4,189 nucleotides of DNA from a virus (lineage: Duplodnaviria; Heunggongvirae; Uroviricota; Caudoviricetes). The notes under the pieces were generated by a model. It had not been told where the DNA came from. It saw only the letters and a program-made list of their open reading frames with translations, and did not search any database. Both the position numbers and the translations under genes were made by a program. Shown one piece after another: positions 247 to 4,189 of this stretch; position 1 is the first letter of the stretch, and each line of letters opens with the position of its first letter. Where the stretch lies: IMG/VR virus record IMGVR_UViG_2663762627_000001, positions 1-4,189 of that record; one strand, 5' to 3'.

Positions 247-433
247 AGCCATATGTTTTGCGCATGACAGCCAGGAAGACCAGAAGCTGGTGCTGTGTTA
301 ATCCGGCCAGCATTACAGCTTCCAGCAACTCATTTGCAATGCGCGTATAACCATCATCGAGATCTGCCACGCGCGGCTCCTTTTGTGCCATATCCGGCAC
401 TGGAAAATTGAATATCTCAGCAGTGTTTGCCAT
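242..433 (-). pseudogene. Replication initiator O-like gene, N-terminal fragment only, interrupted by IS1
   Basis: The minus-strand product MANTAEIFNFPVPDMAQKEPRVADLDDGYTRIANELLEAVMLAGLTQHQLLVFLAVMRKTYGW aligns with the N-terminus of lambda O (…VADLDDGYARLSNMLLEA…LLAILRKTYGW, from memory). The frame stops at a TAA (242-244) lying inside the IS1 terminal repeat, directly after the W codon (245-247). Start assigned to the ATG at 433-431, which sits 4 nt after a GGGAGG ribosome-binding site; the ORF track's longer form starts at 523. Confidence 0.8.
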
Positions 434-519
434 AATTCCTCCCGCAATGAGTGCGTTACGATTTGCACCTGAAAGTCGGTTCTGTTCCCGCAGACCGGCT
501 TTCGCCATTTCTGAACCTG

Positions 520-1059
520 TCATATTGCCCCCAGCATGGTGGTAACCATCGCCATCAATGGACCAGCCAGATCAGGATCCACACGAAACATCGACACAAT
601 GCCTTCACTCATCTCCTTCAGTTTCTGGTGGCGTGGTGCGTTGAGAATGACCGCCTGTTTTGCCTCGCTGAGCTCCTTTTCCATTTCAACCAGTCGAGCC
701 ATGAAGCTATCCTGCTCAACCAGGTGGCCGCGATATTTCAGCGGTAGTACTGCCAGAATTGCTGGAGTCAGTTCACGCACGTTATTTCGGTATTTTTCAG
801 AATCGAATTTGTTATCGAGAAAGCGGAACAGCTTCTGGCGTGCACGACTGACATCATCAGGAAAATCGATAGTGCCGCCGCCCTGTGCTCGATACTCATT
901 CACAATGAGTGCGGCAACGACATCCTGATTATCTACAGCCGACCAGGCGCGGACGGCATCACGGATTTTTTCGTGGCCTGGCACCTGTTTTATTTGAGAA
1001 CGATTTATCACCGCAGTCGGGATAAATCCGCTAGTCTGTTGGTATGTAATTGGTTGCAT
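520..1059 (-). CDS. CII-position regulatory protein, probably YdaT-family (179 aa from the ATG at 1059; the ORF track's 190-aa form starts at 1092)
   Basis: Long minus-strand ORF directly downstream of cro and upstream of the O-like gene. The ATG at 1059-1057 has an AAGGA ribosome-binding site 9 nt upstream; the ATG at 1092 has none. Motifs EYRAQGGG and LTPAILAVLP are reminiscent of YdaT-family proteins (family assignment from memory, not verified). Its stop overlaps the upstream in-frame ATG of the O frame in an ATGA arrangement (520-523). Confidence 0.6.
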   Translation of the reverse strand: MQPITYQQTSGFIPTAVINRSQIKQVPGHEKIRDAVRAWSAVDNQDVVAALIVNEYRAQGGGTIDFPDDVSRARQKLFRFLDNKFDSEKYRNNVRELTPAILAVLPLKYRGHLVEQDSFMARLVEMEKELSEAKQAVILNAPRHQKLKEMSEGIVSMFRVDPDLAGPLMAMVTTMLGAI

Positions 1060-1082
1060 AATTGATTCCTTTAGTCTGAATT

Positions 1083-1128
1083 GACTGTTCATCAGTCTGT
1101 TAAGTTGATTGCTTATTGTTAAAGAACG
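1083..1128 (-). promoter_or_regulatory. Candidate nutR-like site: boxA-like element plus a small hairpin, between cro and the CII-position gene
   Basis: Minus strand 1128->1115 reads CGTTCTTTAACAAT, one mismatch from the rrn/lambdoid boxA core (T/C)GCTCTTTAACAA as I recall it. 17 nt further downstream, GACTG-ATGAA-CAGTC (1097->1083) forms a 5-bp stem with a 5-nt loop, the same geometry as boxB. Position matches lambda nutR. Confidence 0.35.
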
Positions 1129-1140
1129 TGAAAAGGAAAT

Positions 1141-1371
1141 TTAAGCTGCATTCTTTTCGGTATGTGGAAACAACTTCGGAAGATCCGGGCGAATCTGGTA
1201 TGCCTTAACTACCCCGCCAGTAGCCGTAACAATGCTGCCGACATGTTCAGGGGATACCTTTGCTTTGTTGTGTAGCCACTTATAGACGGCCTGCTGTGAA
1301 ACTTCGCAGGCATCGCCCAGTTTCTTTTGTGAACCGACGATATTGATCGCGGTTTTGATTGCTGGGTTCAT
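1141..1371 (-). CDS. cro: Cro-like HTH repressor (76 aa)
   Basis: Minus-strand ORF divergent from the repressor gene, with a GGAGG ribosome-binding site 5 nt upstream of the ATG (1371-1369). The product MNPAIKTAINIVGSQKKLGDACEVSQQAVYKWLHNKAKV…VKAYQIRPDLPKLFPHTEK has the same pattern as lambda Cro (…[20 protein letters not shown]…VYAEEVKPFPSNKK). Confidence 0.85.
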   Translation of the reverse strand: MNPAIKTAINIVGSQKKLGDACEVSQQAVYKWLHNKAKVSPEHVGSIVTATGGVVKAYQIRPDLPKLFPHTEKNAA

Positions 1372-1398
1372 AACAACCTCCGTGGTTAACTTGAATTA

Positions 1399-1470
1399 AG
1401 ATTAAAACCATGGTTGTTTTTAGTCAACAACCATTTTCGTTTGATGAAATAAAACCTTGGTTGTACATTT
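1399..1470. promoter_or_regulatory. OR-like divergent control region with three operator candidates and PR-like/PRM-like promoters
   Basis: Two perfect 10-bp palindromes, AACCATGGTT (1406-1415) and AACCTTGGTT (1453-1462), flank a half-site-only copy AACCATTTTC (1429-1438); centre spacing is 23 and 24 bp. Minus-strand TTGACT (1427-1422) followed by an AT-rich -10 candidate TAATCT (1404-1399) would drive cro. Plus-strand TTGATG (1441-1446), a 17-bp spacer and TACATT (1464-1469) would place a transcription start at about the cI ATG, giving a leaderless message as at lambda PRM. Confidence 0.5.
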
Positions 1471-1475
1471 GGTCT

Positions 1476-2165
1476 ATGAAAACAACACTCTCAGAAAGAC
1501 TTAAAGAAGCCAGATTAGCGCGAGGCCTTACACAAAAGGCGCTTGGGGATATGGTCGGGGTTAGCCAGGCTGCCATTCAGAAAATCGAAACAGGGAAAGC
1601 TAACCAAACAACTAAAATCGTGGAGATCGCAAACGCTTTAGGTGTGCGCGCAGAATGGTTATCTTCTGGCGTTGGAAATATGTCAGACAGTACCGTGCAA
1701 CCAATACAATCAACTGTCAGCCATTCAAAATACTTCAAGATTGACGTTCTTGATATAGAAGTCAGTGCCGGACCGGGTGTCATCAACCGTGAGTTTGTGG
1801 AAGTTCTACGCTCGGTTGAGTACTCGTTTGACGATGCTCGTCACATGTTCGATGGCAGGAAGGCGGAAAATATCCGCATCATTAACGTGCGCGGTGACAG
1901 CATGTCAGGGACGATCGAACCAGGTGACCTGCTGTTCGTTGATATCACTGTTAAATCTTTCGACGGTGATGGCATCTATGCGTTTCTGTACGACGACACT
2001 GCCCATGTAAAACGTCTTCAAATGATGAAGGATAAGCTGCTGGTTATCTCTGATAACAAGAGCTACTCGCCGTGGGACCCGATCGAGAAAGACGAGATGA
2101 ACCGGGTGTTCATATTCGGTAAGGTCATTGGAAGCATGCCGCAGACGTACAGGAAGCATGGTTAA
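1476..2165 (+). CDS. cI: CI-like prophage repressor (N-terminal HTH, C-terminal S24/LexA-type autoprotease domain), 229 aa
   Basis: The HTH segment LSERLKEARLARGLTQKALGDMVGVSQAAIQKIETGK begins right after the ATG at 1476. The C-terminal half carries a candidate Ala-Gly cleavage site (VSAGPG), the catalytic serine motif GDSM and the lysine motif HVKRL. The ORF track's upstream start at 1410 would run through the operators, so 1476 is preferred. Stop TAA at 2163-2165. Confidence 0.9.
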   Translation: MKTTLSERLKEARLARGLTQKALGDMVGVSQAAIQKIETGKANQTTKIVEIANALGVRAEWLSSGVGNMSDSTVQPIQSTVSHSKYFKIDVLDIEVSAGPGVINREFVEVLRSVEYSFDDARHMFDGRKAENIRIINVRGDSMSGTIEPGDLLFVDITVKSFDGDGIYAFLYDDTAHVKRLQMMKDKLLVISDNKSYSPWDPIEKDEMNRVFIFGKVIGSMPQTYRKHG

Positions 2166-2340
2166 TTTATCTACGACTTAAGGGAGCGAAGGTTAAGGTT
2201 TATACCACTCGGATTAGATATTGCACTAAATTCTCTATAAGAACGCCAAATCTGTTTGCATATTTCAGTAAATATTCTCGTTGTTAGCTGAAATTTGTTG
2301 CTACTGTCAGCAAAATGTCCCCCTATCTCGTAGCGGTTTT

Positions 2341-2386
2341 TATTTCGAATCATTATGTTAAGATGTTTCTGATTATAATGAATGGA
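2341..2386 (+). promoter_or_regulatory. Candidate promoter for the lipoprotein gene
   Basis: Perfect TATAAT at 2374-2379 with TG at 2370-2371, 16 bp upstream of the ATG at 2395, in an AT-rich intergenic tract. No good -35 hexamer; the leader would be very short. Confidence 0.3.
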
Positions 2387-2394
2387 AACATAAA

Positions 2395-2775
2395 ATGAGA
2401 AAAATCCTAATCGCTGCCATGATGGCATCTCTATTGGCTGGGTGTGCTTCTTCAGGCAACCAGCAACTCAAAAATGAAACTGAAATTAGTGTCCAGTCTA
2501 AACTTCAGGAAGGTAAAACAACCAAGAATGAGGTTAAATCTTACTTTGGTTCTCCTGATGCTGTTTCATATACTGACAGTGGAAACGAGATCTGGAAGTA
2601 CGCCTTTGCAAAAGTAAAAGTTAATGGCACCACTTTTATTCCATTCTATGGATTATTCCATAATGGAACGAACGGTACGAAAAAAGAACTTACTATTCTT
2701 TTTAACGATGACACGATTAAGAAATACACAATGTCAGAAACCCAAATAAACTCGAAATCAGGTTGGGCTGACTGA
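2395..2775 (+). CDS. Outer-membrane lipoprotein of unknown function (126 aa), in the rexAB-equivalent slot; fold possibly BamE/SmpA-OmlA-like
   Basis: Signal peptide MRKILIAAMMASLLAG followed by lipobox LAGC; the residue after the Cys is Ala, consistent with outer-membrane sorting. Mature region has a pattern resembling BamE: GKTTKNEV…FGSPD…EIWKY…ELTILFNDD versus BamE GMTQQQV…LGTP…NTWFY…TLTLTFNSS. Codon usage is clearly more AT-rich than flanking genes, and the gene has its own terminator. Confidence 0.85.
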   Translation: MRKILIAAMMASLLAGCASSGNQQLKNETEISVQSKLQEGKTTKNEVKSYFGSPDAVSYTDSGNEIWKYAFAKVKVNGTTFIPFYGLFHNGTNGTKKELTILFNDDTIKKYTMSETQINSKSGWAD

Positions 2776-2783
2776 TAATCATA

Positions 2784-2810
2784 CCCGGCAACCGCGCCGG
2801 GTTTTCTTTT
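2784..2810 (+). terminator. Rho-independent terminator after the lipoprotein gene
   Basis: Stem CCCGGC (2784-2789) / GCCGGG (2796-2801) with loop AACCGC, followed by TTTTCTTTT (2802-2810). Confidence 0.8.
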
Positions 2811-2904
2811 CCTCCCCCTCATAACTCATACCGTCCAAAAAACCACCACACCTCACTTCAGTTATCGCTATGCGATGCAAGTCACAAAATAAATCCATCC
2901 TAAA

Positions 2905-2985
2905 TACAACCAGTTATATTTAAAACAACCGACAAAACAACTTTTGTTGTTGACGATAAAACAACTATAGTTTTAAATAAATTCA
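2905..2985 (+). promoter_or_regulatory. pL/OL-like region: candidate promoter and repeated operator-like motifs
   Basis: TTGACG (2950-2955), a 17-bp spacer, then TTAAAT (2973-2978). The ACAACC-type motif seen in OR recurs here: TACAACCA (2905-2912), AAAACAACC (2922-2930), the inverted repeat AACAAC-TTTT-GTTGTT (2936-2951) overlapping the -35, and AAAACAAC (2958-2965). Confidence 0.4.
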
Positions 2986-3034
2986 TCGCAACGACACAAC
3001 GATACGGTAACCACCTGTTTCACCGTTGCGATGA
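2983..3034. repeat. Perfect 11-bp inverted repeat with a 30-bp spacer in the pL leader
   Basis: TCATCGCAACG (2983-2993) and its exact reverse complement CGTTGCGATGA (3024-3034), immediately downstream of the candidate pL -10. Confidence 0.7.
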
Positions 3035-3255
3035 CCGCTTAGATCCGCAGTTTGAATTTCAGCAGGCTTCGGGGAGTGCGAGGGGTGAAACGGACGCGTG
3101 AACGTCGGTGTGACCAGCTGAAATCAACACAACACTTTATACCTCAGTCGCTTCAACGAGGCGGCTTAGTTATGACAACCGGCGGCCATCCACCGCCTGA
3201 ATACGCGCAGAAGTCTCTATATGTTCAGCAGCCCAGCTTACGGGCAGGAGTTTTT

Positions 3256-3462
3256 ATGGTTCATCAACATTACGGAACGCAGACCGTTAATCGCGGCGCG
3301 GTCATGCCAGGAATGCTGGTCAAACACAAAGATGGTACCTGGACTGCATCAGCTAATTTACGCGGGCGGCTTTATCTGCATCGCGGCATCGAGCGCACTT
3401 ATACCCGTGATTTGCTCGTAGAAGTTTTTCTCGACGGACGCGGTAACGGCCTGAATCACTAA
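3256..3462 (+). CDS. Hypothetical small protein (68 aa) in the N/kil position upstream of gam; may be the C-terminal part of a longer ORF
   Basis: ATG at 3256 has an AGGAG ribosome-binding site 5 nt upstream; stop TAA at 3460-3462. The same open frame extends upstream to a TTG at 3052, with a GTG at 3085 (GGGGAG 8 nt upstream) and an ATG at 3172 (GAGG upstream). Product MVHQHYGTQTVNRGAVMPGMLVKHKDGTWTASANLRGRLYLHRGIERTYTRDLLVEVFLDGRGNGLNH has no family I can recognise. Confidence 0.45.
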   Translation: MVHQHYGTQTVNRGAVMPGMLVKHKDGTWTASANLRGRLYLHRGIERTYTRDLLVEVFLDGRGNGLNH

Positions 3463-3538
3463 CCCCCCTTTCCTGTTTTCCTAATCAGCCTGGCATTTCG
3501 CGGGCGATATTTTCACAGCCATTTTCAGGAGTTCAGCC

Positions 3539-3835
3539 ATGAACGCTTATTACATTCAGGATCGTCTTGAGGCTCAGAGCTGGGCGCGTCACTACCAGCA
3601 GATCGCCCGTGAAGAGAAAGAGGCAGAACTGGCAGACGACATGGAAAAAGGCCTGCCCCAGCATTTGTTTGAATCGCTCTGCATCGATCATTTACAACGC
3701 TGCGGGGCCAGCAAAAAAGCCATTACCCGTGCATTTGATGACGATGTTGAGTTTCAGGAGCGCATGGCAGAACACATCCGGTACATGGTTGAAACCATTG
3801 CTCACCATCAGGTTGATATTGATTCAGAGGTATAA
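3539..3835 (+). CDS. gam: Gam, host RecBCD nuclease inhibitor (98-aa GamS form)
   Basis: Product [98 protein letters not shown] is near-identical to lambda Gam as recalled. AGGAG ribosome-binding site 8 nt upstream; stop TAA at 3833-3835. Confidence 0.95.
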
Positions 3836-3840
3836 AACGG

Positions 3841-4189
3841 ATGAGTACAGCACTCGCAACGCTGGCTGGGAAGCTGGCTGAACGTGTCGGCATGGATTCT
3901 GTCGACCCACAGGAACTGATCACCACTCTTCGCCAGACGGCATTTAAAGGTGATGCCAGCGATGCGCAGTTCATCGCATTGTTGATCGTCGCCAACCAGT
4001 ACGGCCTTAATCCGTGGACGAAAGAAATTTACGCCTTCCCTGACAAGCAGAACGGCATCGTTCCGGTGGTGGGCGTTGATGGCTGGTCCCGCATCATCAA
4101 TGAAAACCAGCAGTTTGATGGCATGGACTTTGAGCAGGACAATGAATCCTGCACATGCCGGATTTACCGCAAGGACCGTAATCATCCGA
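3841..4189 (+). CDS. bet: Bet (Red-beta) single-strand annealing recombinase, N-terminal 116 codons (3'-partial at window end)
   Basis: Product MSTALATLAGKLAERVGMDSVDPQELITTLRQTAFKGDASDAQFIALLIVANQYGLNPWTKEIYAFPDKQNGIVPVVGVDGWSRIINENQQFDGMDFEQDNESCTCRIYRKDRNHP matches lambda Bet as recalled; GAGG 10 nt upstream of the ATG. Confidence 0.95.
   Translation, partial: MSTALATLAGKLAERVGMDSVDPQELITTLRQTAFKGDASDAQFIALLIVANQYGLNPWTKEIYAFPDKQNGIVPVVGVDGWSRIINENQQFDGMDFEQDNESCTCRIYRKDRNHP

Follow-up and report, generated by a model that had tools for sequence, protein, structure and literature searches.

Gene Order in the Window

The window (the whole stretch of 4,189 nucleotides that was analyzed) comes from a lambdoid E. 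coli prophage, of which it spans the immunity and early-left region; its positions 247–4189 match the chromosome of E. coli WP8-S17-ESBL-05 with 100% identity. PGAP annotates this chromosomal locus with a replication protein, a YdaT-domain protein, a Cro-like regulator, an S24-peptidase repressor, and a BamE-like lipoprotein, followed by a 68-aa "phage encoded cell division inhibitor protein" (window 3256–3462, plus strand; by PGAP and phrog_294, a predicted KilR-type cell-division/FtsZ inhibitor in the kil slot of lambda) and, onward, by a 98-aa "host-nuclease inhibitor Gam family protein" (3539–3835, plus strand), Bet, and a lambda-type exonuclease. The gam product has the short form, GamS, and is a predicted RecBCD inhibitor (Pfam PF06064, PDB chains). 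The window contains the 5' part of bet (3841–4189, plus strand; a RecT-family annealing protein by Pfam RecT and PGAP), which runs off the window end. Between kil and gam lies a spacer of 76 bases (3463–3538, plus strand), untranslated after the kil stop.

The left end of the window (positions 1–246) is the right end of an IS1 element, with the InsB C-terminus at 13–231 and the terminal repeat TAAGTTGGAGTCATTACC at 229–246. The element is inserted at 242–246 in an O-like replication gene, of which the first 93 codons remain (523 down to 242, minus strand); in the IS-free locus of E. coli WP8-S17-ESBL-05 this gene is intact, with 339 aa. As the O-like gene is truncated by IS1, this copy of the prophage is probably replication-defective.

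The Cro position is taken by a YdaS-family HTH protein (1141–1371, minus strand), and the CII position by a YdaT-domain protein (520–1092, minus strand; phrog_163, "CII-like activator"), so that a Rac-like YdaS/YdaT regulatory pair is combined with a lambda-like Red module. Downstream (3') of the cI-like repressor, on the same strand, a 126-aa BamE-domain-like lipoprotein (phrog_3135; window 2395–2812) sits in the immunity operon at the position of lambda rexAB. Its gene is followed by a strong intrinsic terminator (2783–2802, plus a T-run); the segment 2783–2814 matches lambda 35795–35826, beside the end of rexB, with 87.5% identity over 32 bases.

A putative pL promoter, TTGTTG-16-TATAGT, is seen at 2944–2971, and the 146-base leader 3' of it (2983–3128) has two long predicted hairpins, at 2983–3034 and about 3052–3128. 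Conservation of the leader starts exactly at ~2985 in many relatives despite a different operator region. The layout recalls the put-type antiterminator RNA of HK022; however, a put-like RNA was rejected as a candidate, as 25 relatives show zero compensatory changes, sequence similarity to the HK022 pL-nun region is absent, and a covariance model built from the relatives has no match in HK022, lambda, 933W, or the diverged gam loci. No gene for an N-type antiterminator is present between the immunity operon or putative pL and kil, and Rfam, searched with all 4,189 nucleotides at E ≤ 1, yields zero matches.

The kil Gene and the Left Edge of the Lambda-Like Module

The kil ATG at 3256 is preceded by AGGAG at 3244–3248, and translation of the three plus-strand frames shows that the ORF ends in ...GRGNGLNH*, with the TAA at 3460–3462. 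The protein matches the phrog_294 profile over its whole length (E = 1.3e-37) and the NCBIfam model NF008465, "FtsZ inhibitor protein," with 63.1 bits, below the curated cut-off of 92 bits. Judging from these scores, it would be a related member of the KilR family, outside the Rac KilR subfamily as NCBI defines it. Similar to Rac KilR and lambda Kil, both FtsZ-directed division inhibitors, the gene has the kil position in the pL operon, and its family (phrog_294) is KilR-like; unlike Rac KilR, it falls below the NCBIfam threshold, and unlike lambda Kil (47 aa, phrog_3924), with which it shares no PHROG family, it has no detectable sequence similarity to that protein, BLASTP giving zero alignments at E ≤ 100.

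The last seven bases of the gene, TCACTAA (a His codon and the TAA stop; 3456–3462, plus strand), are the shared end of both the KilR-type and the lambda-type kil. Here the lambda-like sequence begins: blastn alignments to lambda and to 933W both start at window 3456, and phage matches with a lambda-type kil start at query position 77, the same base. Positions 3456–4189 align to lambda with 96.9% identity over 734 bases and two gaps, and the sequence from 3456 onward aligns to 933W with 98.1% DNA identity and one gap. Against a 4-kb lambda stretch, the window matches at 3456–4189 and at the 32-base terminator 2783–2814 and nowhere else, with no adjoining lambda-like sequence 5' of 3456. A previous reading of the letters alone (hereafter, the sequence-only reading) had placed the left edge of the lambda-like sequence at this junction, and the alignments bear it out. 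Positions 3456–3462 are a typical mosaic joint at a gene boundary, forming the left edge of a lambda/933W-like module; the junction exemplifies lambdoid mosaicism with modules exchanged exactly at the stop codon of a gene.

Reading Frames and Indels of the kil–gam Spacer

Translation of the three plus-strand frames confirms that the gam frame is closed by a TAA at 3482–3484, 18 codons 5' of the start, and finds zero ATG, GTG, or TTG in this frame between the TAA and the gam ATG at 3539. The spacer thus offers one stop and no starts in the gam frame, and the claim of the sequence-only reading that only the short Gam can be made is upheld by both the closed frame and the absence of an alternative start.

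Alignment with lambda shows two 1-base insertions in the spacer, both on the plus strand: TTTT for TTT at 3522–3525, where the window has CCATTTTCAGG and lambda has CTATTTCAGG, and six C for five at 3463–3468. The T-run indel uncouples the upstream frame from the gam frame. In lambda the arrangement of the kil–gam junction indeed differs, with TTT and an open frame of 138 codons. A 1-base indel had been foreseen near a T-run at 3521–3525, and it exists, although the run itself is 3522–3525, since 3521 is A; a single indel had been implied, and the second 1-base difference, in the C-run, was missed.

A 21-residue GamL-like peptide is encoded at 3463–3525, in the frame of the upstream ORF and beyond its stop, exactly as had been noted from the letters. 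It matches residues 16–36 of lambda GamL at 18 of 21 positions, so its assignment to the N-terminal extension of the long isoform in the sequence-only reading is accurate with respect to the 138-aa gam annotated in lambda. Because the surrounding 734 bases align to lambda at 96.9%, the likeness of the peptide is best ascribed to homology, not chance, the spacer DNA being homologous to what lambda nominally reads as GamL codons 16–40. That these residues share a frame with the upstream ORF is due to the six C, instead of five, that follow the kil stop; as the residues are located past that stop, the shared frame has no coding meaning, and the extra C has no coding consequence, only setting the frame in which GamL-like residues appear. 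In phages 933W and PhiR30_1, TTTT is combined with only five bases past the kil stop.

Recoding would give the peptide a product: ribosomes that read through the kil TAA and then shift by +1 on the U-run (CAU UUU C) would yield a long Gam or a Kil–Gam fusion. The six C do place the Gam-like residues in the kil frame, and at 3523–3526 a slip of tRNA-Phe from UUU to UUC is conceivable. However, two rare events in series would be required; TAA terminates efficiently; CAG, the codon that follows UUU in the 0 frame, is not slow; a significant stimulatory structure is absent; and in most relatives, which have five C, the residues are outside the kil frame, so that the scheme is conserved by nothing. 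Nor does the locus look like programmed frameshifting or read-through, as the frame relation varies (5 or 6 bases) and the stop precedes the stretch. The probability of recoding is close to nil.

The consensus terminator scan detects a weak hairpin in the spacer (3488–3505, plus strand), GCCUG...CGGGC followed by GAUAUUUUCA. As a terminator or other functional RNA element it is not significant and was rejected: shuffled sequence yields as many such sites, and the fold z-scores reach –1.0 in the window and –1.6 in lambda. The stem includes a variable site, GCC[C/T/A/G]G. For lambda itself, a "tL2 cluster" of terminators is placed between bet and ral, a placement not confirmed in lambda records.

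The gam Gene and Its Product

The gam ATG at 3539 stands behind a good Shine–Dalgarno sequence, AGGAG (3527–3531, plus strand), read from the sequence 7 bases before the ATG and conserved in relatives. The translated protein scores 213.1 bits against Pfam PF06064 (cut-off 25), with residues 1–98 on model positions 1–98 of 98, and aligns end to end with the PDB chains 5mbv_A and 2uuz_A (E = 5e-60). It is identical to lambda GamS (PDB 2UUZ/2UV1/5MBV) at 95 of 98 residues, the three differences being L22I, H55C, and S61A, and has the same Shine–Dalgarno sequence and start. As in lambda, the gene lies directly upstream of bet-exo in a DNA module of the above 96.9% identity: bet (RecT family) starts at 3841, and the identical chromosomal locus continues to bet and the lambda-type exonuclease. 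The gene is an intact 98-codon gamS with its own ribosome-binding site, preceded by the 76-base untranslated spacer. Initiation at 3539 would produce a 98-residue GamS, a predicted RecBCD-binding DNA mimic; the mechanism given for Gam is the one described in PMC5218532.

In the survey described below, 37 of 76 polymorphic sites of gamS are at third codon positions. Residue 55 (window 3701–3703) is Cys, as in 10 of 123 surveyed intact genes among the matches listed, while lambda and most relatives have His.

Distribution of the Two Spacer Haplotypes

A pattern scan of IMG/VR allowing any spacer length yielded at least 120 loci, which together with the window, lambda, 933W, and PhiR30_1 make 124 sequences. 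Among the matches listed, the 45-base TTTT spacer is found in 89 of 124, with the gam frame closed 18 codons upstream (15 in two) and the extension absent; the 44-base TTT spacer is found in 35 of 124, of which 33 have a 40-codon ATG extension. For the IMG/VR relatives alone, the TTTT short-only spacer is seen in 86 of 120 matches listed (72%), and also in phage 933W. All 45-base-type relatives among the matches listed have the in-frame TAA equivalent to 3482–3484. By type of upstream gene, 53 of 54 IMG/VR loci with a KilR-type gene are short-only, and loci of the lambda-Kil type divide into 33 short-only and 33 long-capable (both counts among the matches listed). Among the matches listed, 7 of the 124 surveyed sequences have six C, as do L125 and L157. 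Across complete E. coli genomes, the kil–gam junction is present in 3141 of 5426; exact matches to the 95-mer of the window occur in at least 1186 records of these genomes, and exact matches to the lambda 94-mer in at least 629. By these counts, the short-only arrangement is the majority state among relatives, and the open 138-codon frame of lambda a minority. The frameshift suggested by the sequence-only reading is thus present in close relatives, as the majority state among the matches listed.

The T-run length is always linked to a C/T substitution at 3520, two bases 5', forming two discrete haplotypes, CCATTTTCAGG for the 45-base type and CTATTTCAGG for the 44-base type. At the T-run, three diverged homologues have ATTTCAGGAG-like motifs and one has TTTTAGGAG, and with spacers unalignable further 5' they give it no polarity. 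The C/T linkage bears on the reading of TTTT and CCCCCC as sequencing or assembly errors concealing a lambda-like sequence with an open GamL frame. Both differences do lie in homopolymer runs, error-prone on some platforms; however, errors would not be expected to produce two discrete haplotypes, nor the exact 95-mer in so many complete genome records, and the six C recur in independent IMG/VR contigs and in the 100%-identical complete genome. Even with the run lengths of lambda, the KilR-type gene would offer no GamL ATG, and such an error is scarcely credible.

Several named phages share the arrangement. In 933W and Stx2-converting phage 86, as in the window, a TTTT spacer, an in-frame TAA, and a 98-aa gam are seen, with the 98.1% DNA identity from 3456; unlike the window, they have a lambda-type kil and cIII upstream, and CCCCA, not six C, after the kil stop. 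PhiR30_1, PhiR26_1, 4A7, Perceval, and the WP8-S17-ESBL-05 prophage have, similar to the window, the order KilR-type kil, spacer, gamS, with only the C-run varying within this group (TCCCC, CCCCC, or CCCCCC); the window copy differs from them additionally by the IS1 in the O-like gene. The gam of 933W is annotated with 98 aa, and phage 86 has two annotated "gam" CDSs, of 50 and 98 aa, hence, the frameshift relative to lambda is already on record in the phage 86 annotation. The present finding is correct but ordinary, being already known and already contained in database annotation.

In the TTTT phages with a lambda-type kil, the old GamL start opens a 50-codon ORF (MDINAETEIKQKHSL...), e.g., at 362–514 of the phage 86 sequence (L158), where it overlaps the end of kil and the start of gam and was annotated by the depositors as the second "gam." This ORF is absent from the window.

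The same distribution weighs against a reading in which the extra T inactivates gam by frameshift and leaves it as a decaying pseudogene of a defective prophage. The ORF looks frameshifted relative to the 138-aa reference annotation of lambda, and IS1 truncates the O-like gene at 242–246; on the other hand, the 98-codon GamS ORF and its Shine–Dalgarno sequence are intact, GamS is the form in all solved structures and is active (PMC5218532), the same spacer is the majority allele, including the functional phages 933W and PhiR30_1, and diverged homologues (see below) carry the short form only. A pseudogene is therefore very unlikely, this reading being already largely refuted.

Origin of the Short-Only Arrangement

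We conclude, with a probability of about 0.9, that the window carries a lambda-type gam-bet module with the common short-only spacer allele, joined to a KilR-type kil. Positions 3456–4189 would supply the left end of this recombination module, whose junction with the preceding gene, a KilR-type kil unrelated to lambda kil, lies precisely at the stop codon of that gene; the 76 untranslated bases after this stop hold the gam Shine–Dalgarno sequence. Gam would be expressed from the pL transcript via the AGGAG site, and the Gam-like residues upstream are no more than what spacer DNA with ~97% identity to lambda yields on translation.

Lambda and about a quarter of the relatives have a spacer with one T fewer and an ATG within the lambda-type kil, so that a 138-codon ORF, GamL, is open. 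In the window, where the extra T puts the TAA in the gam frame and the KilR-type gene supplies no ATG, no long form can be made; its absence is presumably without functional cost.

GamL: Family Feature or Accident

GamL and GamS are known as two isoforms, both active when expressed from plasmids (PMC5218532; PMC11610958), presumably arising from two starts. In the lambda reference annotation gam has 138 aa. In the window, the sequence about 40 codons upstream of gam has no in-frame ATG free of an intervening stop, and its KilR-type upstream gene lacks the MDIN... ATG of GamL. The Pfam Gam model has 98 positions, and the solved Gam chains have 98–99 residues.

Seven diverged Gam homologues with 70–76% amino acid identity, from Citrobacter, Klebsiella, Raoultella, Escherichia sp., Pseudescherichia, and an Enterobacteriaceae genome, all share a start at the methionine equivalent to Met1 of GamS, most of them behind a CAGGAG/TAGGAG-type Shine–Dalgarno sequence; an in-frame upstream ATG is found in 0 of 7, in-frame stops being located 1–38 codons upstream. 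A further Gam homologue, with 82% identity, is seen in E. coli ECMA0423 and Shigella flexneri SFBU1023 (L140 and L141, at ~1474–1790); it has no ATG at the conserved start (frame ...LRLPQSAYPIFDRIEEMAWARHY), the sole candidate being a GTG 9 codons upstream, and may represent a diverged start or a decaying copy.

A selected second isoform would change the meaning of the short-only allele, which would then be functionally distinct (in potency or in its RecBCD/SbcCD/Kiwa range) and not neutral. Consistent with this, activity is reported for both forms (PMC5218532; PMC11610958), the 44-base allele is common (at least 629 E. coli records), and the 40-codon frame is open in 33 of 35 44-base sequences among the matches listed, although an open frame over just 40 codons of near-identical sequences is weak evidence. 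Against it, the extension is missing from 72% of close relatives among the matches listed and from 7/7 diverged homologues, and the GamL ATG of lambda lies inside kil, behind an A-run and without a Shine–Dalgarno sequence. Substitutions in the extension are mostly non-synonymous: among lambda-type sequences the 40 codons have 10 variant codons, 3 synonymous and 7 non-synonymous, too few to show neutrality, and the part outside the kil overlap has, in the same small sample, 3 synonymous and 6 non-synonymous substitutions; this count is underpowered, part of the stretch being fixed by the search pattern. Usable ribosome-profiling evidence for the start of gam was not found in the literature searched. 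Overall, selection for GamL as a second isoform is unlikely. A related reading, in which the TTT/TTTT dimorphism is a maintained switch between GamL plus GamS and GamS only, with a distinct selected role for GamL, is a shade more doubtful still; if true, that role, e.g., against a particular nuclease or defense system, would be missing from the prophage lineage of the window. In some strains of K. pneumoniae, GamL slightly outperformed GamS (PMC5218532), and a functional difference between short-only and long-capable alleles is possible.

The preferred reading, a common short-only allele of a lambda-type module, agrees with these comparisons: 72% short-only close relatives among the matches listed, together with 7/7 diverged homologues, provide modest support for GamS as the functional product and, equally modest, for GamL as an accident of an open upstream frame. 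For annotation, the 138-aa "gam" of lambda should be treated as the exception and the 98-aa GamS as what the family conserves; since GamS is the conserved form, the "frameshift" relative to lambda at this locus is not to be flagged as a pseudogene. For biology, the short-only gam junction carries little weight.

Low-coverage contigs with a gam that is essentially that of lambda are also seen in many GTDB representative genomes of unrelated taxa (L126–L136), among them Pseudomonas, Shewanella, Kitasatospora, Neobacillus, Oceanobacillus, Leeuwenhoekiella, and Enterococcus. The GamL frame is also present in those checked (L126–L128), and three of the lambda-like contigs are ~48.4–48.5 kb long, the size of the lambda genome; these contigs are probably lambda DNA contamination of the assemblies.
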